A stretch of 63,752 nt of DNA, counting the filler, from an uncultured Methanosarcinales archaeon (GTDB lineage Archaea; Nanobdellota; Nanobdellia; Woesearchaeales; CAYMBN01), in NCBI GenBank assembly GCA_964388715.1. It is 6 parts of 4 records of this genome, joined end to end, with 100 filler letters (N's around TTAATTAATTAA, not from the genome) between each part and the next. Parts side by side here need not be neighbours in the genome. Positions count along the whole stretch, not along the records: positions 51,375 to 61,919 come from CAYMBN010000005.1; 5 more parts are not named here. One strand, 5' to 3'. Below, in pieces: positions 1 through 63,752 of this stretch. The stretch's first letter is position 1. Every line of letters begins with the position of its first letter. The translations under genes and the position numbers were made by a program. The notes beneath the pieces were generated by a model. It saw only the letters and a program-made list of their open reading frames with translations, was not told the origin of the DNA and did not search any database.

Positions 1-1200
1 AAAATTTATGATATGTTTACTGCTGCTGAAAATTCTTCATTTTTTGGTGTATCACAACAAAGATTAGGATTACAGCAAGATAAAGTTAGTCAGTTCTTAG
101 CAACAATTGGTAAAATGGTTAAGGAATTGTTTCAGATTGTTAGAGAACTTAGAATTATTGATGAAAGAATGGATTATTATAAGGATAGTTATAATCCTGA
201 TAGAAGAAAAGCAGAACCTGCTGAGATTACACTAAAAGGCATTTTTATTGATATGGTTGAACAAGGTGCAAAGAATCCTAGTTCTGTGTATGGGATGGCA
301 CGTGAATTACAATTTGTTACTCTTCCTGATTTGTTTTTTTCAACTCATCCAAGGAAAGCAGATGATGTTGAAGATATGGTTGATAACCTTAAATTTAATA
401 GAAAAGTAAGAGAAGTGTTGAAAAGAAAACTTTATGGTTTTTTAAGATGGAAAGAGAATACATTTAAAGAAATTAAAAATAGAAGAAGGTTTACTATAAA
501 GTATCTTAGACAACATTATGATATAATTAAAATGTACATGAATTGGGTAAGACCTTACTTAAGAAATATACAAAGGTTAACCATGGATGAAAAATGGGTT
601 AAGAGTCCTCATCTTATAAGTGCTTTTGAAGGTAGTATAATTGAGATAGAATTTCTTGCAAAAAGATTTCCTTTTAATGAAAAAGAAGGTAAATATTTTA
701 AAAAAGTTTTTGGTGTGATTATTGCTCATTTTATTTACAGAACAAGGCCACACATGTCTTTTCAACAGGAAGGTTATCAACGTGGACCAGGGCATTTTGG
801 TAGGATTGTTATGGAGCTTAGGTCATATGCGTGGACACAAGAAGAAATTGATTTATACAAACAATTGAAAGTGCAGGAAGATTTTGAATTAATGAAAAGT
901 ATAAGTGCTTCTGTTGAAGCTGCTTATACTGCATTAGGTGATGACTTGCAGAATTATTTAGAGGAAGCTGGTGAAAGATTTCCAGGAAGAAAAAGTGGAG
1001 CAAAAGAAGGAAAAAAGAAGGGTAGAAAAAGGCCAAAAAGTGGTTTTTTTAGAAGTGCAGCGTCAGTAGCAAAAAAGAAGAGTTCAGAAGAAAAAGCACT
1101 AATTAAAGCTGAGAGGAGTAAAGCTCAAGGAGATGCTACTGAAATTATGTTTAATGGCTATAAGAATTTTAAGAAAGGGCATGGATTAGTAGCATGGTAA
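1..1200 (+). CDS. Hypothetical protein, probably 5'-truncated by the window edge
   Basis: 395+ aa ORF, frame open to position 1; no recognised motif; Lys-rich C-terminus. Confidence 0.7.
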   Translation, partial: KIYDMFTAAENSSFFGVSQQRLGLQQDKVSQFLATIGKMVKELFQIVRELRIIDERMDYYKDSYNPDRRKAEPAEITLKGIFIDMVEQGAKNPSSVYGMARELQFVTLPDLFFSTHPRKADDVEDMVDNLKFNRKVREVLKRKLYGFLRWKENTFKEIKNRRRFTIKYLRQHYDIIKMYMNWVRPYLRNIQRLTMDEKWVKSPHLISAFEGSIIEIEFLAKRFPFNEKEGKYFKKVFGVIIAHFIYRTRPHMSFQQEGYQRGPGHFGRIVMELRSYAWTQEEIDLYKQLKVQEDFELMKSISASVEAAYTALGDDLQNYLEEAGERFPGRKSGAKEGKKKGRKRPKSGFFRSAASVAKKKSSEEKALIKAERSKAQGDATEIMFNGYKNFKKGHGLVAW

Positions 1201-1209
1201 ATTATAAAA

Positions 1210-1830
1210 ATGGCGAAAAGTGGTTTTGAAAAATTAAAGGAATTACCGCCTGAAGAACGAATAAAAAAATTAAAAGAAATTGAGGAAGAAAGTAAAAAAG
1301 AGATTGAAAAAGCGCATAAACTTCTTAAGACAAGTGAAGAAGAATTAGAAATGAAAAAAGAGGAGAAACGTAAAATTCCTATACCTCAATTAAGATCAAT
1401 TGATATTGATGCTTTATTTTCACAAGAAGAAAAGGATCTTTTTAAAGTTAAAAGGTTTATTGCAGAAAGAAAAAAAGAGGAAGAAGTTAAAGAGAAACCA
1501 CTTGAACAGACTGTTGCAGAGACTCAATTAGATCTTACGCCTGAGCAGGTTCAACAGATTCAGGTTGAGTATGGGCTTAAGCGTGACACAGAGATGGCTA
1601 ACATTTATAACAGAGTAAGAGATATTTATAATCAAGCTAAGGAAACAGGTTATGTCTCACCTGATCAAATGAAACAACTTACTGCTGCGGTTTATGCAAT
1701 AGGAGAAAAACAGCAGGATATGCAAACCGGAAATTATCCTAGTGCAGGTGAAAATGTTATGAAGCAGATTGGTGTTGTATACGAGATGAAGAAAAAGTTA
1801 GAAGATCGTTGGACATATCAATCAAGATAA
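1210..1830 (+). CDS. Hypothetical protein, charged/coiled-coil N-terminus
   Basis: 206 aa ORF tightly spaced between neighbours. Confidence 0.7.
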   Translation: MAKSGFEKLKELPPEERIKKLKEIEEESKKEIEKAHKLLKTSEEELEMKKEEKRKIPIPQLRSIDIDALFSQEEKDLFKVKRFIAERKKEEEVKEKPLEQTVAETQLDLTPEQVQQIQVEYGLKRDTEMANIYNRVRDIYNQAKETGYVSPDQMKQLTAAVYAIGEKQQDMQTGNYPSAGENVMKQIGVVYEMKKKLEDRWTYQSR

Positions 1831-1846
1831 ACAAAAGAGAGGTAAA

Positions 1847-3895
1847 ATGATATTTAATCAAGGATATTATCATGTTATGGATCGTGGTTATGATAGTTCT
1901 CCTGCTCAGGAAGGTTCTGATACTAATGATGTTGGATTAAGTATTAAAGAAATTGGTCAAGGACTTCCAATGGGTATTGCAGCTAATAATGTACATGGTG
2001 TTGCTTCTAAAATAAGAATGGGTGTTGGATCAATGGAAATACAATTCCCTGGAGCTGTTCGTTCTAATAGACAATCTCATACACCTGGTGTTTATGGGAA
2101 AGATCAAAGAGTTGCGATGGAAGAATTAACAAGGATAAATGAAGTTAAGTTAACAACTCACGCTAGTTTTGGTATTATGGGTCTTGCAGGAGTTGATCAG
2201 CAAGGTAATTTTAATAAAGAACATAGAAAAATTCTTACTGATGAAGTTAAGCGTGCAATTGATTTTGCAGCTGATGCTGCACATGGTGGTTCTGTTGTTG
2301 TTCATACTGGTGAATATGAAAGACCTATTTCTGAAGAAGCTTGGGCAGAAGGTGGTAAAAAGTTTAGGCATTATGATGAAGAAGCTGAAAGAGCAACAAT
2401 ACGTGTTGTTGATAGAAGGAATGGAAGAGTAATTCAAGATGTTAAAAAGAATCAGAAAGTGACTGTTGCTGAATGGAGAAAAGCAGATAAATCTTATATG
2501 GCTAAGTATCAAGAAGGTGATTTTGACAAGTTATGTGGAAAACAAGTTATGATTAAAAAAGGAGATTATATTGATTATGAAGGTAATAAAATTATTGATC
2601 CGCTTAATGTTGAACATGGTCGTTTGCCAGAGTATAATGTTAAAACAGGTCGTTTTAATGTAAAGTTAAGGGATTGGCAATATTTTGTAGATGAGTCAAA
2701 AGAATGGAATCGATTAATGGAAGAAAAAAAAGGTAGACCATTAACATATGATGAAAAAATGACCCCTGAGGAAAGGTATATTAGGTCAACACTTGAAACA
2801 AGAGAAGGTTATGCACGTGGTTGGGCTTTACAATTTAGCGTTGGGATGAAAGAGAATATTGAGAATATTAGAGAATTAAGAAAGTTAAGAGCTCATTATC
2901 AACAACTTGATCAAAATCTTCCTGAAGATGAAAAATGGAAAATTATGATGCGTGATCAAAAGTATGGTAAAGCAGGGCAATTATTACCTCCTAAAACAAA
3001 GAATCCTTTAGAAGTTATTGATAAAGCAATATGGGAAGAAGAACGTAATCTTGCTTACCACCAGCAGTCAGGTTTATCACAAGAAAAAGAAGCGCATGAT
3101 TCAAGAGAACAGCAGGAAAATATATTGAGTGCAAGGAAATATGCACTTAAAGAAGCAAAAAAAGCTTATGCAGATGCTGCAATGCATGCTTATGACTTAA
3201 CACAAAAAAGAAAGCATGAATTGGATAAACCAATTTTTCTTACTTTAGAAAATATTTTTCCTGAAAGGTATGGTGGTCATCCTCAAGAACTTAAAAATTT
3301 GATAATGCTTTCAAGGCAGGAAATGGCTAAGAAATTACGACAAGAAAGAGGGTTAAATGAGAAGCAGGCAAGAGATGCTGCAGCAGTACATATCAAAGCT
3401 ACAATTGATACTGGACATTTTAATATATGGCGAAAATATTTTAGAGGGTCTGATGAAGAGTTTAAAAGTTGGTTAGTTAATCAAGTAGAAGATCTTGCTA
3501 AGAATAAATTGATTGGTAATGTACACTTAACTGATAATTTTGGTTATCAGGATGACCATTTGGCACCTGGGCAAGGTACTGCTCCTAACAAAGAAATTGT
3601 TAAAGTGTTGAAAAAACATGGTTATGATGAAGCTTATACTATTGAACCTGGTGCAGATGCAACAACTGATTTAAGTGATTTTCATGGTTTAATGAAAACT
3701 TGGAGACATTTTGGTAACAGTGTTTATGGTATTGGTGGTGGAGGTGGCGGACCTACCAGAGTTGGTGCCCCTTCACGACAATGGACAGATATTCAATATT
3801 CTTACTTTGGTCAGAACAGACCACCTTATTTTGTCTTTGGTGGATATGTGCCTTCACAAGATTGGACTCTTTGGAGTCAGGTTCCGATGGAATGA
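1847..3895 (+). CDS. Xylose isomerase/AP-endonuclease-2-like TIM-barrel protein with a large insertion
   Basis: TTHA, VVVHTGE, LENIFP, TIDTGH, VHLTDN..DDHLAPGQG and TIE motifs; SD GAGGT upstream. Confidence 0.7.
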   Translation: MIFNQGYYHVMDRGYDSSPAQEGSDTNDVGLSIKEIGQGLPMGIAANNVHGVASKIRMGVGSMEIQFPGAVRSNRQSHTPGVYGKDQRVAMEELTRINEVKLTTHASFGIMGLAGVDQQGNFNKEHRKILTDEVKRAIDFAADAAHGGSVVVHTGEYERPISEEAWAEGGKKFRHYDEEAERATIRVVDRRNGRVIQDVKKNQKVTVAEWRKADKSYMAKYQEGDFDKLCGKQVMIKKGDYIDYEGNKIIDPLNVEHGRLPEYNVKTGRFNVKLRDWQYFVDESKEWNRLMEEKKGRPLTYDEKMTPEERYIRSTLETREGYARGWALQFSVGMKENIENIRELRKLRAHYQQLDQNLPEDEKWKIMMRDQKYGKAGQLLPPKTKNPLEVIDKAIWEEERNLAYHQQSGLSQEKEAHDSREQQENILSARKYALKEAKKAYADAAMHAYDLTQKRKHELDKPIFLTLENIFPERYGGHPQELKNLIMLSRQEMAKKLRQERGLNEKQARDAAAVHIKATIDTGHFNIWRKYFRGSDEEFKSWLVNQVEDLAKNKLIGNVHLTDNFGYQDDHLAPGQGTAPNKEIVKVLKKHGYDEAYTIEPGADATTDLSDFHGLMKTWRHFGNSVYGIGGGGGGPTRVGAPSRQWTDIQYSYFGQNRPPYFVFGGYVPSQDWTLWSQVPME

Positions 3896-3930
3896 GAAAA
3901 TATTAAAACAATTATAAAATTATCTTCTTT

Positions 3931-4467
3931 ATGCATAAGAAATTTGAGTTAATTAATAAAGAATATGATGAATTCTATAAGTCATTAGCTGAGGAAGGTG
4001 GTGGGGTGTTTGTTCTTGATACTTCACATGGGATATGGGGGACAATGAGTGCTAAAAGTGTGTTTGATTTTTTTCAAAAAGTAGGATTGGGGAAGTTTAA
4101 GAGTTTTCTTGACTTAGGAAGCGGTGATGGTAAGATTGCTTTGATTGCTTCGCTTTTTACAAATGCAACAGGTATTGAAGGTGATAAGGGTTTGTTTAAT
4201 ACAAGTATTAAGATGAGAAGTAAGCTTGTACTTGATTGTGAATTGGTTCATGGTGATTATCTTGAACATGATTTAGGTAAGTATGATGTTATCTTTTGTA
4301 ATCCTGATAAACCTTTTTATCATGGGCTTGAAACAAAATTAATTAAAGAGTTTAAAGGTGTATTGTTTGTTTATAATGATATATTTTTACCAAGATTTCT
4401 TAAGAAGAAAAAGGTTTATCGAATTGAGCAGATGACCATTAATGAATATAGGGTTAACTGTGCATAG
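3931..4467 (+). CDS. Class I SAM-dependent methyltransferase
   Basis: Motif I FLDLGSGDG, then GIE, GDY and YDVIFCN. Confidence 0.8.
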   Translation: MHKKFELINKEYDEFYKSLAEEGGGVFVLDTSHGIWGTMSAKSVFDFFQKVGLGKFKSFLDLGSGDGKIALIASLFTNATGIEGDKGLFNTSIKMRSKLVLDCELVHGDYLEHDLGKYDVIFCNPDKPFYHGLETKLIKEFKGVLFVYNDIFLPRFLKKKKVYRIEQMTINEYRVNCA

Positions 4468-4583
4468 TGCCATGCCTGTAAAAAATACAAAAACTTAATT
4501 CTAATCATTATGGTTTTTGACAGTATTGTTTTACAATACGAATCCTTATTTTTTACAAAAAGATGGCAAAGGCACTATGCACA
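4459..4583. repeat. Long imperfect inverted repeat (MITE-like or hairpin)
   Basis: TGTGCATAGTGCC (4459-4471) / GGCACTATGCACA (4571-4583); inner TGTAAAAAATA (4477-4487) / TATTTTTTACA (4547-4557). Confidence 0.75.
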
Positions 4584-4646
4584 AGTGTTAAGTAATAACA
4601 TTTATATATTCTTACAGTTATTATTATATAAAAAAGAGGGAATATT

Positions 4647-7313
4647 ATGGATTATTATGCTGCTAAAGTTAGTGATGTTCTTAAGGAATTGAAGAGTTCT
4701 AAAAATGGTTTAACAGATAAGGAAGCTAAGAAAAGATTACTTAAGTATGGTGCAAATGAATTAGAAAAAGCAAAAGGAACAACCGCACTTAAGATTTTTC
4801 TGGATCAGTTTAAGAATGGACTTATTTTATTGCTTATTTTTGCTGGGATATTATCATTGTTTCTTAAACAGAATGTTGAGGCAGTTGCAATATATTTTAT
4901 TGTGTTATTAAATGCAATATTGGGTTTTGTTCAGGAGTATAGGGCAGAGAAAGCTTTGGAAGAACTTAAAAAAATGTCTGCACCAACTGCTAAGGTGTTA
5001 AGACATGGGAAAGAGATGAAGGTTCCTGCAAAAGAAATTGTACCTGGAGATATTCTCATGCTTGAAGCAGGTGATATTGTTGCAGCTGATTCAAGATTGA
5101 TAGAAGTTTCGAGTCTTAAGATTGATGAAGCTTCTTTAACAGGAGAGTCTGTTCCATCGAAAAAGGTTATTAATTCATTTAAACCTGGAACATCTGTAGC
5201 TGATCAGGAAAATATGGCTTTTATGGGAACTGTTGTTACATATGGTAAAGGAAAAAGTGTTGTCACAGGTACTGGAATGAAAACTGAATTTGGAAAGATT
5301 GCTACTTCATTGCAAACAACAAAGACTGTTAAAACTCCTTTACAAATTAAGTTTGAACAGTTAGCAAAACAACTTGGGATAATTGCTGTTTCTCTTGTTG
5401 TTATTTTGTTTATAGTTGGGGTATTGCAAGGTTCATTTTCTTTTAGTGAGATGGTTTTATTTGCATTAGCTGTTACTGTTTCAACTGTACCAAACTCTTT
5501 GCCATTGGTTGTGACAGTTGGATTATCTTTAGGAACAAAGAAGCTTGCTAAACATAATATGCTTATTAAAAAGCTTCCTGCTGCAGAAAGTTTAGGAGCT
5601 GTAACTATCATTTGTTCTGATAAAACTGGAACTATTACAAAAAATCAGATGACTGTCACAAAAGTTTTTTATAATAATCAAGTGATTGATGTTAGTGGAG
5701 CAGGTTATAATCCTACAGGTAATTTTAGTGTTAGTGGTAAACAAATTAATGCTAAAAGATTAGAATTATTATTAAGAATCGGTTATTTATGTAATAATGC
5801 AGAATTAGTTAAGAATGAAGGGAAATTTGATATTATTGGTGATCCTACAGAAGGTTCTTTGGTTGTTCTAGGAAGAAAAGGTAAATTTGATGATAAAAAT
5901 TTTTTACTTATCGACGAGCTTCCGTTTGATTCTGATAGGAAGCGGATGACTGTGATATTTAATAATAAAATAAATAAGAAGAAAGAAGCTTATGTTAAAG
6001 GTGCACCTGATCTTCTTTTGAAGTTTTGTACTAAGATAATTGAAAATGGAAAAGTAAGAAAGATTACGAAGAAAGATAAACAAAGAATTCTTAAAATGAA
6101 TAATGGTTTTGCAAAAGATGCATTACGTGTTCTTGGATTTGCATATAGGGATGTTTCTAATTTGAAAAAATATTCTATAACAAGTGTAGAAAAGGATTTG
6201 GTTTTTGTTGGACTTGTTGGAATGATTGATCCTCCTAGAAAGGAGATTAAAAAAGCAGTTAGTCAGTGTAAAAATGCTGGTATTGATGTTATGGTTATTA
6301 CTGGTGATCACGCAATTACAACACAGGCAGTAGCAAAACAAGTTGGATTGTTTAGTAAAGGAGATATCATACTTACAGGTGAAGAGATTGAAAATATGAA
6401 TGATGAAGAACTTATCAAACAAATTGATCAAGTAAGAATTGTTGCAAGAGCATTACCTATACAAAAATTAAGAATAGTTAATGCTTTGCAAAAGAAAGGA
6501 CATATTGTTGCGATGACTGGTGATGGTGTGAATGATGCTCCTGCACTTAAAAAATCTGATATTGGTATTGCAATGGGTATTACTGGTACAGATGTTGCAA
6601 AAGAGGTTTCAGAAGCAACCCTTGTTGATGATAATTTTGCGTCAATTGTGAGGGCAATTGGTGTTGGAAGGGATATTTATAATAAAATGATTAAGTCTGC
6701 GAAATATCTTTTATCTTGTAATGGTGGAGAAATAACTTCAGTGTTTATTGCAATAATGCTTAAGTTTCCATTACCTTTACTTCCACTTCAAATATTGTTA
6801 ATGAGCATACTTACTGATGATTTTCCTGCCTTAGGTTTGGGGTTGGAATCTGCTGAAGAAGGGATTATGGATCAAAAACCAAGAGATCCTAAAGAAAAAC
6901 CACTTACATCTAGGATAGTTTTGTCAATTGTTATTTTTGGACTAATTATGGGTTTAGGAACATTGTTTATGTTTGTGCAGTATAAAAATATTGATTTAAG
7001 TAAAGCACAGACAGTTGCGTTTACAACATTGGTAATGTTTCAGATGTTTGCTGTTATAAGTAGTAGAACTTTGCATAGTTCGCTTAAACATCTTAATCCT
7101 TTTTCAAATATGTGGTTATTTGGTGCAGTATGTTTATCAATAATAATTCAATTATTAGTTGTTTATGTACCATTTTTACAGACTGTTTTTGGTACAACAT
7201 CTTTATTATTGATTGATTGGATTAAGATTATTGCGATTGCAAGTTTAGGGTTTATAATGATGGAATTAAGTAAGATTATTGGGTTTAGAAAGAAAAGTGT
7301 TGTAACTGCATAA
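4647..7313 (+). CDS. P-type ATPase, type IIA-like cation transporter
   Basis: TGES, CSDKTGT, KGAP, MITGD and TGDGVND motifs; multiple TM helices; M4 reads PNSLP. Confidence 0.93.
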   Translation: MDYYAAKVSDVLKELKSSKNGLTDKEAKKRLLKYGANELEKAKGTTALKIFLDQFKNGLILLLIFAGILSLFLKQNVEAVAIYFIVLLNAILGFVQEYRAEKALEELKKMSAPTAKVLRHGKEMKVPAKEIVPGDILMLEAGDIVAADSRLIEVSSLKIDEASLTGESVPSKKVINSFKPGTSVADQENMAFMGTVVTYGKGKSVVTGTGMKTEFGKIATSLQTTKTVKTPLQIKFEQLAKQLGIIAVSLVVILFIVGVLQGSFSFSEMVLFALAVTVSTVPNSLPLVVTVGLSLGTKKLAKHNMLIKKLPAAESLGAVTIICSDKTGTITKNQMTVTKVFYNNQVIDVSGAGYNPTGNFSVSGKQINAKRLELLLRIGYLCNNAELVKNEGKFDIIGDPTEGSLVVLGRKGKFDDKNFLLIDELPFDSDRKRMTVIFNNKINKKKEAYVKGAPDLLLKFCTKIIENGKVRKITKKDKQRILKMNNGFAKDALRVLGFAYRDVSNLKKYSITSVEKDLVFVGLVGMIDPPRKEIKKAVSQCKNAGIDVMVITGDHAITTQAVAKQVGLFSKGDIILTGEEIENMNDEELIKQIDQVRIVARALPIQKLRIVNALQKKGHIVAMTGDGVNDAPALKKSDIGIAMGITGTDVAKEVSEATLVDDNFASIVRAIGVGRDIYNKMIKSAKYLLSCNGGEITSVFIAIMLKFPLPLLPLQILLMSILTDDFPALGLGLESAEEGIMDQKPRDPKEKPLTSRIVLSIVIFGLIMGLGTLFMFVQYKNIDLSKAQTVAFTTLVMFQMFAVISSRTLHSSLKHLNPFSNMWLFGAVCLSIIIQLLVVYVPFLQTVFGTTSLLLIDWIKIIAIASLGFIMMELSKIIGFRKKSVVTA

Positions 7314-7768: not shown

Positions 7769-7868
7769 NNNNNNNNNNNNNNNNNNNNNNNNNNNNNNNN
7801 NNNNNNNNNNNNTTAATTAATTAANNNNNNNNNNNNNNNNNNNNNNNNNNNNNNNNNNNNNNNNNNNN
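7769..7868. other. Artificial contig spacer
   Basis: N44-TTAATTAATTAA-N44, stops in all six frames. Confidence 0.97.
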
Positions 7869-8387: not shown

Positions 8388-11300
8388 ATGAAACTTAAAA
8401 AAATAATATGGATCTTTGTATTACTTTCTTTAATACTTAATTGTGCTGCTTTAACAATCCAAACATCTACACCAACAATTAAAGTATATTATGATGAAGA
8501 AGTTATTATTATCAACAAAAACCTAACAAATGATCTTAATAATGAAAGCTATGCACTATCACAAACAACACAAGATAACAAAACATTTGAATTTACCCCA
8601 ATATATGCTTTATCAAATGGAAATCATACATTTAAATTAGAAGCAAAAGATATTTTTGGTAATATAGCAGATGAGTACATATTAAAATTTACAATAAATG
8701 CACCATTCATAAACATAAAACTACACCAACCTAAGTTTGGTGTTTCAGATCACTTACCTTTTGACGTTATAATTAACACATCTCAGATTGCAATATGTAA
8801 ATATGCAATTAATCCTAATTATCTCTACAGTGAAATGATTTTTTTTACACAAACAAATAATTACACTCACAAAATATCAAACTTTAATATCCGTGAATCA
8901 AAACTTTATATTAAATGTAAAGATGAACTTAACAGAATAAACGAAAATCAACCAGTTATTTTTGACATTAGTTATGATAACACAGCCCCAAAACTCACAC
9001 CTATTTTTGATCCAAATCCTATAATTGAACTCATTGATGATAGAGCTAGAACAAACCTAACACTAACAACAGATGATTTTGCCATATGTAAATATTCAAC
9101 ACAAAACATAAATTATTCTTCTATGGGTAGTAAGTTTGACAACTGGAACCCTTACAAACAAGAAAATTTTGTTAAAACACATTCTAAAGAATTTGATTTT
9201 TCCAATGATACAAAAAATTATGATTATTATTTTACATGTGAAAACTTAGCAGGACTTGTTTCTAATCCTGTTAAAAAAACACTTACAGTAAACACACAAA
9301 TTGGTTTAACCATTAAAGTTAACACACCTTCACCTACAAAAGAAACAAATATTACTTTAGATATTTCAACAAACAAAAGATCAAAATGTTCCTTTACTTT
9401 TAATAGTACTGAAACATTATTTCCAACTACACTAGCAAAACAACATTCTATTAACATTGGAACTTTTACAGCAGGATCACACAAATTTAACATAACCTGT
9501 TCTTCTGCAGGAGAAAAAGTTACTAAAGATTTTACACTTGTTATTGATTTAAGTGAACCTTCAAAAGTTATTTTTGATGAAGATTTAAAAGATTATACTT
9601 GTGAAAGATCAAACAATAGATGGAGAGTTAGAGCAGAATTTTCTGCTCAAGACAACGAATCAGGTATAGGTGCTTTCAACTATTCACTTTACCAAGGAAA
9701 TAATCTTATTTTTGGTTGGATAACAGCAACTGCACGTGGAGATAATACTTATGAAGCAGAAGTTGAAACAAACAATAATGGTGACGACTTAAACTTAACT
9801 CCAGGTAAAAAATATCATTTTAGAGCAATTGCAATGAATAAAGTAGGAATCTGGAATAGAGATATAGAAGAAAGTAGAGACATAACAGCTCTTGACAAAT
9901 TAGATGATAAATGCAGAGATACTAATCCTCCTGAAACATCAATAACAACAAAAAAAATAACAAATGGAGTAAATATAACAATTAATTGTTATGATAGAAA
10001 TCCTGGTTGTGATGATTCAGAAAGAACTTATGGGAGTAATCTTGTTCAAGGTTTATGTAGTGAAACAAGAGAATATCATGATCGCCCAATTACACTAATT
10101 GAATCAACTTACTTTTGTTGGAGAGTTTGTGACACTGTTAACAATTGTAAAACCGAAATTCAATATGTTGATGTAAACGCAATGTTAAATGATGCAGATA
10201 ATGATGGTATTGCAGATGATTCTGACAATTGTGCAAACACTCCAAGTGATGAAGTTGCTGTTAAAAATGGTTGTTCGTGCTCACAACTAGATGAAGATAA
10301 GGACAATGTTAACAATTGCAAAGATGAATGTCCAAGAACCCCTTTAGCTGAGACAGACAAAGTTAATAACAAAGGTTGTGCACCTTCAGAAAGAGATTCA
10401 GATGGTGATGGTATGCCTGATAATTGGGAAAAATTATATGATCTTGATCCATATGACCCAAATGATCGTGATGAAGACCTTGATAATGATGGTTCTACTA
10501 ATTATGAAGAATACCGTGAAGGAACAGATCCAACAGATCCAAACTCAACACCAGCTATTGATTCTGATAGTGATGGTATTGTAGATAATAAAGATAAATG
10601 TCCAAACACACCTTTTGACGAACTAGCAAATGAAGATGGTTGTTCAGTATCACAAGTAGATACTGACCAAGATGGAATACCTGATGTTTGGGAAACACAA
10701 AATAATCTTGACCCAAATAATCCAGAAGATGCATACTTTGATAATGATGGTGAAGGACTTCTTAATATAGAAGAATATCAATATTCAACAAATCCTAATA
10801 ATGAAGATACAGATGGGGACAAATTTGATGATAAAAGAGAAATTGATGCAGGTACAGATCCAAATGATCCCAATTCAAAACCCGAAGGAGGAAGCATTTT
10901 ATCCGGTATTGTTTCAGTTTTAGGCACATTATCAATATTAGGTGGAGGAGGTTATTTGGGTTATGAAAAATATTTTGGAAAGAAAAAAGTATTAATGACT
11001 TCACCCACTACTAAAAAAACAATAATACCTCAACAAATAATTAAAAGAACTACAATCAAAAAACCATTACAATCAAAAACAAAAACCAGACAAAGACCAT
11101 TACAATTGTTAAAAAGAAAAAAATTAACCAAAGAAAAGAAAGTTACAGAAAGGTCAAAATTATTTGATGTATTTGGTAAAACATCACCTTCAAAAAAACT
11201 AAAAATAACACAAACAAAGAAACCAATCCTCAAAAGAATAACAAAACCAACCAAAAAATTAAATAAAATTAAAAACATTTTTGTTAGGCCAGCACAGAAA

Positions 11301-39258: not shown

Positions 39259-39358
39259 NNNNNNNNNNNNNNNNNNNNNNNNNNNNNNNNNNNNNNNNNN
39301 NNTTAATTAATTAANNNNNNNNNNNNNNNNNNNNNNNNNNNNNNNNNNNNNNNNNNNN
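39259..39358. other. Artificial contig spacer
   Basis: N-TTAATTAATTAA-N. Confidence 0.97.
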
Positions 39359-47741: not shown

Positions 47742-47841
47742 NNNNNNNNNNNNNNNNNNNNNNNNNNNNNNNNNNNNNNNNNNNNTTAATTAATTAANNN
47801 NNNNNNNNNNNNNNNNNNNNNNNNNNNNNNNNNNNNNNNNN
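47742..47841. other. Artificial contig spacer
   Basis: N-TTAATTAATTAA-N. Confidence 0.97.
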
Positions 47842-51274: not shown

Positions 51275-51374
51275 NNNNNNNNNNNNNNNNNNNNNNNNNN
51301 NNNNNNNNNNNNNNNNNNTTAATTAATTAANNNNNNNNNNNNNNNNNNNNNNNNNNNNNNNNNNNNNNNNNNNN
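51275..51374. other. Artificial contig spacer
   Basis: N-TTAATTAATTAA-N. Confidence 0.97.
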
Positions 51375-52203
51375 TACAATATGGACACAAGATAATCAAA
51401 TCAACAAATATCCTTTCTTGATATATCATAAAGATGGAAACATAGTTGATATTGATTCAACAATCAGCTTTATTAAAGATTATAAACCAACTAGAATCAC
51501 ATTAATAGAAGATTCACCAAAAGAATTTGATTCATTATTAGCAAGTGCTGCCTCATTATATACAAATAAAATACAAAAAATAAGTCTAAATGATTATTTT
51601 TCCTATTGGAAATCATACAAAGACATAATTTACGTTGACAATGATTATAGTTTAACAATGATGGCCTCTGTTTATGCATCACTGAAAAATATTCCAATAG
51701 TAATAAAAGGAACCACAACCGATAATACTAATACATTTAATCAAAAGAATGTAATAGCAATTAATATAAAGTGCCCAGAAAACTCTGCCTCATGTTACAA
51801 AATAGAATCTTTAGTAGAACTACAAAAAGAATACATTAAACTAACTAAAACAGATAAAGCAATCCTTGTAAACCCAAGTGATATTAACATTTTAACAAAA
51901 GAAAACTTAATCCCCCTAAAAACACCAAACATAATCCAAAACTTATACTCATCAGCATCATTATCAGCACCAATACTTGCTTCTGCTAAACATGAGTTAA
52001 TCATATTCACAAATATAGATCAAACACAACAAAATCCTTATTGTGAAACAGATATTAACACTCAACAAAATTTCAACAAAATTATTATTGATATTAACAA
52101 TAACATCAATACATTGTTTAATTACAATCCAAAATACTTAACAATTTTAGGATCACCAATGGCAATACCTGATTCAGACTTTGATTTATGCATTGGTAAA
52201 TAA
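51375..52203 (+). CDS. Hypothetical surface-associated protein, 5'-truncated
   Basis: ORF from contig edge; ASVYASLKNIP, LSAPILASAKHE and YLTILGSP motifs. Confidence 0.6.
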
Positions 52204-56010: not shown

Positions 56011-56084
56011 ATTTTTTGTTTTTTTTTTAGATTTTTCTAAAACTTTATAAACAAATAAGGAAATTACACATTTAGGATAAATCC

Positions 56085-56178
56085 TTTTGAAGTGCAACAG
56101 TGCGATGATCCTGGTGAACACCATCTGACGCAAGGATGATGAACGGAAGTAACTTGGTAGTGCTGCATTGATTCAAAA
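56085..56178 (+). ncRNA. Candidate C/D-box small RNA
   Basis: TATA at 56044-56051; terminal stem TTTTGAA/TTCAAAA; C-like GCGATGA 56102, D' CTGA 56125, C' ATGATGA 56136, D-like TTGA 56168; locally GC-rich. Confidence 0.55.
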
Positions 56179-59600: not shown

Positions 59601-60386
59601 TTATATTAATTTTGAAAGGTTTTTTATATCTTTATTTGCAACATGTGTGTAAATTTGGGTTGTTCTTAGGTTTTTGTGGCCAAGAAGTTTTTGTATATGT
59701 CTTATGTCTGCACCTGCTTCAAGCAGATGAGTTGCAAATGAATGTCTTAAAGTATGTGGAGTAACTTTTTTTTCTATTCCTGCTTTTTTAGCAGTATTTT
59801 TAACAATACTTTGTATTGTACGTTTATTATATTTTTTTGAAAAATTTGAAACAAAAATTAATCCTTGTTTTTTAGGTTTTAATATATTGATAAAATCTTT
59901 TAATCTTGAATGAAGAAACAGGACTCGATCTCTACTACCTTTTGTAACCTTAAGATGTATAATCTCTCTTTCAAAATCAATATCTTGCCATTTTAGGTTG
60001 ATTAGTTCATTAAGTCTTATGCCAGTGTAATAAAGGAACATAATAATCAACCTATGTTTTAGATTGTTTACAGACTCAAACATTCTGTTGATTTCTTCTC
60101 TACTTAATACAATAGGAAGTTTTTCATTGTTTTTTGCTAGAGGAATTTCTTGATTAAAATTTTGTTTAAGAACTTTTTCATGAAAAAATTTTAATGCAAA
60201 ATAAACAGAGCGCATACTTGACCTGCTTTTATTAGTATAACTTAAAAGAAACTCTCTAGGACTTTTTTTTAATACTAAGTATTTTTTTATTACACTAATA
60301 TATGCTTTTTTAGTTTGTTTAGAATATCTTCTTAAATTAAGTTCTTCAGACAATTTTTTAAGATACAACTTGTTTTCTTCTTCCAT
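59601..60386 (-). CDS. Tyrosine recombinase (Xer/IntI-like, lacking the IntI insertion)
   Basis: [21 protein letters not shown] and TTQIY catalytic set; IntI-like RRYSxxTxxAY and LPIVLS; only 56 aa between KGSRDR and HTLRH. Confidence 0.93.
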
Positions 60387-60441: not shown

Positions 60442-60484
60442 CTTATTAAACGACAATTAAAACTGCGTTTAATAAGTGTTAAGT
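60442..60484 (+). other. attI-like primary recombination site
   Basis: CTTATTAAACG/CGTTTAATAAG palindrome followed directly by GTTAAGT core, just upstream of the integrase start. Confidence 0.6.
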
Positions 60485-61027
60485 TTAATTGCTGGGCTTT
60501 AACGGTTTTTTGCTTTAAATGAAACTAAAGTAATCGATAAATTTATATAAGATATGATATTAAATCTTTATTATGAACTGGAAGGAATTTTTCAACAAAG
60601 TGTATTTTATCCTATTAGCAGTTGTATTAGTTGTATCATTAATTTATAATTATACAACCGCACATATCTGTACAACAGGAAAAGGATGTGGACCTGATTG
60701 GACTATCATACCAATTCTTACTCTGGGTCATTTAATAGTATTTACTATTATTTATGGAATTATATTTTTTATCATTAGAAAATCTAAAAAATAAACTTCT
60801 TCTTTTTCTTAATGAGCAAAAAACCTAGCCCAGCAACTTCTCCGCTCCTCACTCATTTCATGAGTTGCGGTGCTCGACCACGTTGCACTCTCCTCGCTCC
60901 GCTCGTCGGGAAACTTAACAGCATTTAAATGGCTCGAGCCTTGCAGGCTCTCGACCCAAATTTTCTCCGCTCGGTTTTGTGGGTTGCCTCAAAACCTTCG
61001 CTCCGAAAACTTCATTTAAATGCCGTG
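60479..61027 (+). mobile_element. Gene cassette 1
   Basis: Starts (G)TTAAGTTT, exact complement of its own AAACTTAAC at 60911; one ORF plus an attC-like site. Confidence 0.75.
60573..60794 (+). CDS. Cassette-borne small two-TM membrane protein
   Basis: 73 aa; TATA TTTATATAA at 60542-60550. Confidence 0.75.
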   Translation: MNWKEFFNKVYFILLAVVLVVSLIYNYTTAHICTTGKGCGPDWTIIPILTLGHLIVFTIIYGIIFFIIRKSKK

Positions 61028-61033
61028 TTAAGT
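60913..61033 (+). repeat. attC-like site 1
   Basis: ACTTAAC-A-GCATTTAAATG ... CATTTAAATGC-CGT-GTTAAGT. Confidence 0.8.
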
Positions 61034-61865
61034 TCAATTTTTGACCCGCCTCATACTGAGGTTTTACCGAATTTTATTAAAGTTGTTCACTTTATTTAAA
61101 TAGATTTAAATAGAATTTTTGGTTATTACATAAAAAATAAGTCTTCAGGAGATTCTTCTTCCATTGCAGTTATAAAACCATTAATTAAATTTGAAGCAAC
61201 TGGAACCAATCCTAGAAACTCATAGTGTTTAGGAGATGCAAGACCATGCCAAACCGCACAACCATATGCTACAGCAACTGCTGCTAATGTTAATTTTTCA
61301 GTCACATTTTCCAATTTAGATTTTTCAGGACCATAGTTGCCATATCTTTTTCTCATTGTAGAATCATAATGATATAACATAAGATTGTGTACTCTCATGA
61401 CTCCTTCACTAATTCCTTTTCCTATTCTGCCAACTAATGTTGAACCAGATAAATCAGAATCTTCAATCTTTTCAGATAACTTATAACCCAAATAAGGTAC
61501 AATTTGTGTTGGTAAAGTTACAGGTAAAGTTGGTATGTACAAAAATAACATTTCTCCTATCATATTATAACTGTATTTATTTTATTTGATATAAAAACAT
61601 TTATGTACTGTAATACATAATAGCCAAAAACTACACTCACAACATAAAATTCGGCGGGCCAAAAACTTTGATTTTTTCGGCTTCGCCGACCGTTGCACTA
61701 AAAATCAATCCTTATCAGGAGAACTTAACAGCATTTAAACAGTTTCGTTTTCTTGCAGAAAACTCCACCCAAATTCTACCTACTACAGCACTCCTAGCCT
61801 GCTTCGAGTCTGTGGTCTGCCTCATCCTCGATGTCGCACCCTAAGAACTTTGTTTAAATGCCGTG
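61028..61865 (+). mobile_element. Gene cassette 2 (ORF inverted)
   Basis: Starts (G)TTAAGTTC, exact complement of its own GAACTTAAC at 61721. Confidence 0.75.
61126..61563 (-). CDS. Cassette-borne hypothetical protein
   Basis: 145 aa; minus-strand TATA-like TTTTTATATC about 25 nt upstream (61588-61597). Confidence 0.65.
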   Translation of the reverse strand: MIGEMLFLYIPTLPVTLPTQIVPYLGYKLSEKIEDSDLSGSTLVGRIGKGISEGVMRVHNLMLYHYDSTMRKRYGNYGPEKSKLENVTEKLTLAAVAVAYGCAVWHGLASPKHYEFLGLVPVASNLINGFITAMEEESPEDLFFM

Positions 61866-61871
61866 TTAGTC
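61723..61871 (+). repeat. attC-like site 2
   Basis: ACTTAAC-A-GCATTTAAACA ... TGTTTAAATGC-CGT-GTTAGTC. Confidence 0.8.
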
Positions 61872-61919
61872 TCAATTCCCAAATCGCCCTTTATGTGCTG
61901 GCAGCACAAATTTTTAAAA

Positions 61920-62019
61920 NNNNNNNNNNNNNNNNNNNNNNNNNNNNNNNNNNNNNNNNNNNNTTAATTAATTAANNNNNNNNNNNNNNNNNNNNNNNNN
62001 NNNNNNNNNNNNNNNNNNN
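61920..62019. other. Artificial contig spacer
   Basis: N-TTAATTAATTAA-N. Confidence 0.97.
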
Positions 62020-63752
62020 GATGTTTCTAAACCTGTTCCAGGATCATTTGGCTTTGCCATTATGTCAAATGAATCTCCGTAGAAAAGAGTTACTGTGTCG
62101 ACTACTAAACCTTCGACAGCCATGTTTTGGATTGTTGGTTTTGTTTTTTCATATAATTGATGAGTCAGTGTTAATATTGATTTTTCAGTTCCTTTTATCA
62201 TTGCTTCTAGTTTAAAGCTTATAGGTCCTTTTGGAGTTGCTTGTGTTGGACATTTTAATTTTATATTAAATGCTCCACTATGTTCTGCTCCTAAATTAAT
62301 GTTTCCAAATTCAGAACTCATTGCTGTTAAACTAAATTTATTTAATGGATCTTCTAATTGACATTTTGTAAGGTCATAAGGAACTCCTTTTGATGCTTCT
62401 GCAATAAATATTCTTATTCCATCAACACCAAATGTGTCTGATTCTGCTTTATTACTGCTGCTGAATTCAATTATGTATTCATCATTAACATATATCCTGT
62501 CATCATGTTTTACTTTTATATAATCACCTAATGATTTTTCAGGATTTGATGGGATTGTTGTACAAGTTTGAGTATTAGCAGGAATATTACAATTACAACT
62601 TCCTTCTGCACAATCTATTTCATTATTTCTATTATTATCTACACCATCATCACATACTTCACTTAAGCTACATGTTTCTCCTCTTGCATTTGTTTGTCCA
62701 GCACAATTAGGATCTGCACAATCTATCTTGTTATTATTATCATTATCAAAACCATCTGAACAAAGTTCTGGTGTGTTTTCTTGACCACTGCTTACACACA
62801 TTGCACCATAATATGTTCCAATCATTCCATTACAATCTTCTGTATCTTTACAATTTGTTTTGCCGTCTAAATCATTGTCATCTGCATCAGCGCATGCAAA
62901 TGCATTTATGTTTTCAACAACAGATAAACCTGGGAATCCTGTTATGCCGCATAAATTAAATCTGTGTTTACAATCTGTGTTAAATTCTCCTTGTTGTAAT
63001 TGATCTGTTGGTTTTTCATCATATCCTTCTATATCATCATGACCATCTGTTCCTGCATCAAAATCATTATTTTCTCCATCTTTACATAAATCAAATACAA
63101 ATAAATTGAATTCATAAGGTGCACATACTTTTGTAGGATCATCAGGATGCACAATACTTAAACAATCAGGATCATCACAATCAAATCCTCCAAAAGGATT
63201 TGTTTCATATTTATTTTTATTTTCATCCCAGAAATAAGTATCTAAATCATTATCTAATCCGTCGAAACATCTTCTTTTATCTTCTTCACCATCCACATTT
63301 AATAATTCTGAATCTGTTTTACAGTTTTCTGCATCTGCACAATCATAGTCAAAACAATCATGTCCAAATTTTTCTCCTGTATATGCAGATCTAAATGGTC
63401 CTTCGTCATATGGATGAGGTATTCTGTATCCCCCTAACCAGTCTCCTGCATTGGCTACTTGTCTGTCAAAGTCATTGTCTATTCCGTCTGAACACCAACC
63501 TGCACCATTGTTTTCAAATTTCGGACACGGATTAGCATCAATATCGTCGCTTGTTCCGCCTCTTCCCCAACAAGCTGAAGTATCATAACAATCAATTGAG
63601 TTTGTATCGCAGTCTCCTCCAAATGTATAGTCTGTACAATAATATGAAGTTACTAACCATGGGTTAGGGTTGGATGCATCATTATCAAATCTGTCGTCGC
63701 AACTACTTATTCCTTTAGTAGTTTTATCATAATATGAAACTCCTTGCATTGG
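62020..63752 (-). CDS. Fragment of a giant Cys/Asp-rich repeat surface protein
   Basis: Repeated CxDGxDNDxD..DCxDxxC units; open at both ends. Confidence 0.8.

Follow-up and report, generated by a model that had tools for sequence, protein, structure and literature searches.

We analysed a stretch of 63,752 nt (63.7 kb) from the draft genome of an uncultured archaeon (GCA_964388715.1), referred to below as the window, and found that one of its contigs ends in two attC-like sites next to a gene for a XerA/IntI-like tyrosine recombinase. These features are probably a small chromosomal integron-like cassette array of a DPANN-type archaeon, with a non-canonical attC geometry and a neighbouring recombinase that lacks the additional domain of integron integrases (IntI). 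The elements stand in the order recombinase gene (minus strand), site 0, cassette 1 with an open reading frame (ORF) of 73 aa, site 1, cassette 2 with an ORF of 145 aa, site 2, and the end of the contig. The interval 60913–61871, for which an earlier note on this DNA had described covarying attC-like sites, holds the second cassette of the array. Sites 1 and 2 are 810 nt apart, so that, as in an integron cluster, at least two sites less than 4 kb apart separate short ORFs.

Site 1 (60912–61034) and site 2 (61722–61872) are on the plus strand and are 123 and 151 nt long, respectively. They share one plan, with a 9-bp R stem (AACTTAACA/TGTTAAGTT), a 2-nt CG bulge on the 3' arm, an 11-bp L stem, a hairpin A, a linker with ACCCAAATT, and a longer hairpin B. 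In site 1, the R stem is formed by 60912–60920 and 61026–61034 and the L stem by 60921–60931 and 61013–61023, and the bulge is at 61024–61025; hairpin A is at 60936–60950, ACCCAAATT is at 60954, and hairpin B covers 60961–61009. In site 2, the left R half is at 61722–61730, the L stem is formed by 61731–61741 and 61851–61861, the bulge is at 61862–61863, hairpin A is at 61747–61763, ACCCAAATT is at 61767, and the hairpin B region is larger. The core motif AACTTAACAGCATTTAAA is exact at 60912 and 61722 and TTTAAATGCCGTGTTA at 61015 and 61853, and no further exact copies of either motif were found in the window. Sites 1 and 2 have identical ends of 18 nt and 16 nt, and they are GC-rich islands (about 50% GC versus a background of 20–30%). 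The R boxes of site 1 fit the consensus of attC ends (ACTTAAC fits RYYYAAC and GTTAAGT fits GTTRRRY). Site 2 has the same ACTTAAC, and its R' box (GTTAGTC) is one position off the consensus, in the portion that would belong to the next cassette. The tips of the two sites are Y-shaped three-way junctions of 81 and 109 nt, and they thus have the variable terminal structure of attC sites.

The folding of these sites is non-random. The z-scores of the single-stranded DNA (ssDNA) folds were −5.5 (plus strand) and −6.8 (minus strand) for site 1 and −3.7 and −3.7 for site 2, and none of 200 shuffles folded as well in any of the four folds. The stems also changed in a compensatory manner between the two sites. 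The L stems, GCATTTAAATG/CATTTAAATGC in site 1 and GCATTTAAACA/TGTTTAAATGC in site 2, are both Watson-Crick paired at 11/11 positions, while 2/11 pairs are altered on both sides. The stem of hairpin A is entirely swapped, from GAGCCT-TGC-AGGCTC in site 1 (6/6 pairs) to GTTTTCT-TGC-AGAAAAC in site 2 (7/7 pairs), with a TGC loop in both. Stem pairs were counted by coordinates, and a MAFFT alignment of the two sites misaligns hairpin A. There are no G-T pairs in the stems. Because all stems are Watson-Crick paired without G-T pairs, both strands fold, and the changes are compensatory, sites 1 and 2 are classed, from their sequence, as folded-DNA-type elements. They are also classed as attC-type cassette boundaries.

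A further shared feature is located outside the sites. The accessory motif GACCACGTTGCACT (60876–60889, plus strand) precedes site 1 and its counterpart GACCGTTGCACT (61688–61699, plus strand) precedes site 2, each ending 22 nt ahead of the R box. The gap between the motif and AACTTAAC is exactly 22 nt in both copies, and the gap sequences are unrelated. The word CGTTGCACT has three copies in the window versus 0.04 expected, the third of which (49014) is within a coding gene. The earlier note had reported most of these features, namely the compensatory change in the outer stems, the TGC-loop hairpin with different stems followed by ACCCAAATT, the shared motif shortly upstream of both sites, and an asymmetric spacer (A versus CGT) next to the core. 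All of them hold in the present analysis, and both strands do fold, a check that it had proposed. The spacer is best drawn as the 9-bp R stem plus the 2-nt CG bulge.

One contrast drawn in the earlier note does not stand. It had regarded the sites as branched, unlike canonical attC sites. As described by Bouvier 2009 (PMC2727003), the terminal structure of attC ranges from 3 nt to complex branched forms in large sites, and long canonical sites such as the Vibrio cholerae repeat (VCR) have branched tips. Therefore, branching is canonical. The sites do depart from canonical attC in a way that the earlier note had not mentioned, since their L stem is free of bulges and their extra bases are solely on the L'-R' arm. 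In the account of Bouvier 2009 (PMC2727003), extrahelical bases, two or three in number, are defined on the R''-L'' arm, and the VCR has a symmetric 5-nt spacer. As a control, the dfrA14 attC beside intI1 (locus L080) was folded; in its top strand, single bases bulge out of the 5' arm, and three nucleotides are left unpaired in either arm between the boxes. For the sites in the window, in the direction leading away from the recombinase, the 5' arm is continuously paired for 20 nt, and the sole extra bases, CG (a T in site 0), are on the 3' arm between the boxes. The polarity and position of the bulge are thus real departures from canonical attC.

Each cassette carries a private 21-bp inverted repeat around its ORF. 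In cassette 1 the repeat is composed of 10 + 11 bp; its left arm (60489–60514, plus strand) and right arm (60815–60836, plus strand) pair 60489–60498 with 60827–60836 (10/10) and 60504–60514 with 60815–60825 (11/11). In cassette 2 it is composed of 6 + 4 + 11 bp; the left arm (61038–61077, plus strand), which is interrupted by a local hairpin, and the right arm (61644–61665, plus strand) pair 61038–61043 with 61660–61665 (6/6), 61045–61048 with 61655–61658 (4/4), and 61067–61077 with 61644–61654 (11/11). The ORF of cassette 1 (60573–60794, plus strand) encodes a small hydrophobic protein and that of cassette 2 (61126–61563, minus strand) an ORFan, and neither has a match in Pfam or NCBIfam. 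For the ORFan, a search of 5.8 billion clusters and 1.84 billion representatives returned a single relative, which is 99% identical.

The ends of each cassette are complementary to each other. When the end of cassette 1 was joined to its own start, the fold was −58.1 kcal/mol, compared with −43.6 and −41.0 kcal/mol with foreign starts. For cassette 2 the values were −57.4 kcal/mol with its own start and −36.9 and −39.3 kcal/mol with foreign starts, and the gain from own-start joining was 14 to 20 kcal/mol overall. The R boxes behave in the same way. In site 1, AAACTTAAC forms 9/9 pairs with the right end of site 0 (GTTAAGTTT) and 8/9 with that of its own site. In site 2, GAACTTAAC forms 9/9 pairs with the right end of site 1 and 6/9 with that of its own site (GTTAGTCTC). 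The poor self-match of site 2 is as expected if its right R half is part of the next cassette. The ninth R-box pair tracks the cassette and not the site, and R-box complementarity was seen in 2/2 junctions, with one variable position in each. These data fit discrete units that might circularise or exchange at the invariant AAC/GTT. Two models of the crossover fit equally, as crossover in the right-hand GTT and crossover in the left-hand AAC predict identical flank pairs for the two cassettes. The first would correspond to the layout of canonical integrons, in which site 0 would be attI, and in the second site 0 would be a complete first attC with its outer R half outside the array.

Site 0 (60442–60486, plus strand) is a minimal site that starts 55 nt from the start of the recombinase gene. 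It is composed of an 11-bp L-type hairpin (CTTATTAAACG/CGTTTAATAAG; helix 11/11) with a 13-nt loop and a 1-nt bulge (T60477), followed by the right R half, and its fold z-score is about −3.1. It shares GTGTTAAGTTTAATT with the right end of site 1, the GTTAAGTTTAATT after the bulge is identical to the right end of site 1, and GTGTTAAGTT-AATT is shared between site 0 and the array sites, as for the proximal site of an integron-like layout. No left R half of site 0 was found within the array. Site 0 may be either the equivalent of attI or the first attC. The 10-mer TTAAGTTTAA from its right R half recurs, in the same orientation, 31 nt upstream of a related Woesearchaeota recombinase gene (L004, 43% identical); the 10-mer has nine copies in 1.17 Mb of recombinase loci.

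The recombinase (59601–60386, minus strand, 261 aa) is encoded divergently from the array and belongs to the Phage_integrase family (Pfam PF00589, E = 2e-44). Its top NCBIfam model is XerA_Arch (207.7 bits, with an equivalog cut-off of 220), followed by IntI TIGR02249, which matches in two stretches (190.8 bits, cut-off 265). The protein aligns end to end and contiguously with the XerA structures 5hxy and 4a8e. Against VchIntIA (2a3v), residues 9–162 of the query align with 6–173 of the chain and residues 186–253 with 242–309, and thus 68 residues of VchIntIA face just 23 in the recombinase. A stretch of 241 query residues corresponds to 299 codons in IntI1. Therefore, the predicted protein lacks the IntI additional domain that marks an integron integrase, and the canonical recognition through the IntI insertion would be unavailable to it. 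Site recognition here may thus differ from that of known integrons. The interpretation in the earlier note, selection on a folded structure that is recognised by a route other than the IntI insertion, is partly supported: the folded-DNA-type sites and the neighbouring recombinase agree with it, while its argument from branching does not hold.

A comparable arrangement was found in one other genome. The 79 comparison loci came from a scan of genome contigs with an alignment of 24 recombinases, and all of their recombinases, among the matches listed, are at most 45% identical. The 79 loci and the window were screened for palindromes that recur with a 9-mer of the stem in common, and the window and four loci (L008, L039, L073, and L076) were flagged. 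L039 is the only comparable array among the loci listed. In L073 the two palindromes, about 17 kb from each other, match by chance, L076 has a true XerD with repetitive extragenic palindromic (REP)-like repeats, and the site in L008 is within a 570-nt duplication. L039 is from a Firmicutes metagenome-assembled genome (contig PGZN01000027.1, features at 230–4745 and 5090–5962). It has five palindromic attC-like sites of 300–390 nt directly upstream of the recombinase gene and four ORFs, each oriented away from that gene. Its recombinase (290 aa) also lacks the insertion (24 residues versus 67) and passes the cut-off of the XerA model, but not that of IntI. In 4/4 junctions, R' and the R'' of the following site are exactly complementary, and double-sided changes occur in 20/89 predicted consensus pairs. 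The longer spacer of these sites (9 nt, against 6 nt on the other side) is carried by the arm that corresponds to the bulged arm in the window, which is the one distal to the recombinase-proximal R box. The sites of L039 may be too long for integron-finding programs, which apply a size limit.

Taken as an integron-like array, the region suggests the following mechanism. Sites 1 and 2 would most likely work in folded form, either as a single strand or as a cruciform extruded from the duplex. Such a fold would present a duplex made of the R box (9 bp, with the AAC/GTT) and the L box (11 bp), with the variable Y-shaped tip as a cap and the 2-nt bulge between the boxes marking one arm. A tyrosine recombinase would bind both boxes, one strand would be exchanged inside the invariant AAC/GTT triplet, and cassettes would move as units with two complementary ends. 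The adjacent XerA/IntI-like protein is the most likely candidate for the enzyme. As this protein has no IntI additional domain, strand choice would be read from the inter-box bulge and not from extrahelical bases held by that domain.

Several observations weigh against this reading. The covariation is anecdotal, with only two full sites. In a shuffle test of single segments, the longest segments of the cassette repeats were matched by 3/300 and 4/300 mononucleotide shuffles, an only moderately strong result. When the plus strand is assumed to be the top strand, the sites have neither extrahelical bases on the R''-L'' arm nor a symmetric spacer. Relatives of the recombinase of about 260 aa and 65–72% identity are common in Woesearchaeota and Nanoarchaeota, which fits a housekeeping XerA, and its adjacency to the array could be incidental. 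Cury 2016 (PMC4889954) judged recombinases near attC sites without the IntI-specific region not to be integron integrases. In blastn searches, sites 0, 1, and 2 had no match under E = 0.6 in 80 loci or elsewhere in the window, and a distant-mode search of plasmid and phage collections gave no match. An apparent pair of sites in L010 was a chance occurrence. A profile of the two translated sites, meant to catch spurious ORFs predicted on related sites, returned four candidates from a protein collection, none at E ≤10, and neither core motif has an exact copy in the supplement of Ghaly 2022.

Among the alternatives, the strongest is an ordinary integron cassette cluster (CALIN) that is serviced in trans by a true IntI elsewhere or is a relic of transfer, in which case the neighbour would be an unrelated housekeeping XerA. 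The high conservation of the recombinase across the lineage and the verdict of Cury 2016 suit this explanation, as do the R boxes, which match the attC consensus. It also agrees with the archaeal integrons described by Ghaly 2022 (PMC9668308), who report 539 attC sites and only six IntI in 75 archaeal genomes, Nanoarchaeota included, mostly as CALINs; the six IntI are all described there with the additional domain. A second recombinase may exist elsewhere in the genome, of which the window gives a view of 63.7 kb. On the other side, site 0, which has the R-box core in common with the array sites, begins just 55 nt away from where the recombinase gene starts, and its 10-mer also precedes the related recombinase in L004. 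Moreover, IntI reads extrahelical bases on one arm whereas the bulge is on the other, and L039 again pairs a domain-less recombinase with an array. We regard an ordinary cassette cluster as rather unlikely, and as less so than the alternatives that follow.

The sites could also be attachment sites of small elements resembling integrative mobile elements exploiting Xer (IMEX), which would use the host Xer at a dif-like site, each site being the folded attachment site of one tandem element. The recombinase aligns best with XerA and does so contiguously, the sites are hairpins of two inverted half-sites, and integration would be in tandem beside the proximal site. The target of XerA is a single 28-bp site with two 11-bp arms and a 6-bp spacer, and the best 11-6-11 palindrome between the recombinase gene and the first ORF (73 aa) matches at only 7/11 positions. 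Furthermore, each cassette has one small ORF and none has replication or phage genes, and in Thermococcales dif is described as not being beside xerA (PMC2958812). Such elements are thus improbable here.

Least probable of all, at slight odds, is that these are not recombination sites but GC-rich structured noncoding RNA genes, terminator or insulator elements, or palindromic repeats resembling miniature inverted-repeat transposable elements (MITEs): GC-rich islands often mark structured RNAs in AT-rich archaeal genomes and the sites have 20-nt terminal inverted repeats, but no Rfam family was found (all E values in the region exceeded 2, and no hit in the whole window reached the gathering score), the stems are without G-T pairs and both strands fold about equally, there is no target-site duplication in the flanks of sites 1 and 2, and the divergence of the right end of site 2 right after GTTA, with CAATT kept, together with the complementary cassette ends, points to a crossover point and not a transposon end. 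tRNA genes were also looked for and none was found.

The window is AT-rich (29% GC) and consists of six contigs joined by artificial N44-TTAATTAATTAA-N44 linkers (7769–7868, 39259–39358, 47742–47841, 51275–51374, and 61920–62019); contigs on the two sides of a linker need not be neighbours in the genome. The array is on the contig at 51375–61919 and reaches the contig end, marked by the linker at 61920–62019, 47 nt past site 2. Since repeats often end contigs, an array that stops at a contig break fits a repeated structure. The same contig encodes archaeal housekeeping proteins, including a proteasome-activating nucleotidase-like AAA ATPase, an aRF1-like protein, and a histone; the first two names were taken from translations without a family search. 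An island of 49% GC at 56083–56175, between two genes, contains the motifs TGATGA and CTGA and could be a C/D-box-like small RNA; its sole Rfam match is a weak CD-box (E = 0.7) far under the gathering score. On the next contig, a long open frame (61968–63752 in the window) for a secreted-type protein that is rich in Cys and Asp and contains repeats runs off the window.

Some features were noted upstream of other recombinase genes among the comparison loci. Ahead of a Pacearchaeota recombinase gene (L003, 716–848), two copies of a motif of the form CACTAAG-NTAAC-CTTAGT are separated by 105 nt and may be dif-like. The motif occurs once upstream of a Woesearchaeota recombinase gene (L037, 8630–8655), perhaps as a dif-like site of the lineage. 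In L037, copies of a 55-nt imperfect palindrome also flank a scaffold gap that precedes the recombinase gene (9414–9623), and the palindrome has the short words TAGCCCAG and CCGAATTTTA in common with the cassette-specific repeats of the window. Two bacteria of the candidate phyla radiation (CPR) both have GTCG(C/T)ACAACTC..CTATACG upstream of XerA-like recombinase genes (L002, 430–520; L007, 430–510). In at least nine loci of CPR bacteria or DPANN archaea, the contig ends less than 600 nt upstream of the recombinase gene.

Recombination of single-stranded attC has been tied to the gain of the additional (I2) domain of IntI (PMC7790495, PMC4792948, PMC4889954), and integron-finding programs accordingly throw out recombinases without it. 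We tentatively raise the possibility of a separate cassette-capturing lineage in DPANN archaea and at least one Firmicutes genome, although we hold this to be doubtful. Its XerA/IntI-like recombinase would have never gained, or would have lost, the I2 domain and would recombine folded attC-like hairpins, with an inter-box bulge opposite the canonical extrahelical arm marking the strand; this would be either a pre-integron state or an independent route of single-strand recognition. If this is true, folded-site recombination is possible without the additional domain, the system is a candidate for the ancestral state of integrons, and cassette systems in DPANN archaea and CPR bacteria have been undercounted by surveys. 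If the adjacency is incidental, the region is one more archaeal CALIN with a somewhat unusual attC geometry. Literature searches, with subscription journals outside the coverage, turned up no account of Xer-type cassette systems in DPANN.

Compared with known systems, the array is closest in outline to integrons. Like integron attC, its sites are imperfect palindromes (57–150 nt in integrons) with RYYYAAC...GTTRRRY ends, R and L boxes, and a variable tip that is branched in long sites. Also as in integrons, they form a tandem array with short, mostly unknown ORFs and a divergent tyrosine recombinase gene by the first site, and the ends of the cassettes match across the cassette. They differ in the perfect L stem without extrahelical bases, in a spacer of 1 versus 3 nt, and in the extra bases on the L'-R' arm; the recombinase without the IntI additional domain, the accessory motif kept 22 nt outside the site, and the 21-bp cassette-specific stem outside the R box set the array further apart. 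The archaeal XerA/dif system resembles it in recombinase size, domain order, and best alignments, and in having a single recombinase without a paralogue pair. In contrast to that system, the adjacent site has no 11-6-11 dif palindrome, and the array sites are about 120–150 nt long, multi-copy, and bound cassettes. In the integration of CTX phage, the host Xer recombines a folded ssDNA hairpin. The array has in common with CTX-type integration a Xer-family enzyme without the IntI domain and a hairpin of two inverted half-sites with a central unpaired element, while it has no phage or replication module and its units are single small ORFs. The sites of L039 are unlike those of the window in sequence, are 300–390 nt long, and are in a bacterial host with all ORFs reading one way. 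Nevertheless, both arrays have a recombinase without the IntI insertion beside tandem palindromic sites, and in both the R' and R'' boxes are complementary between successive sites.

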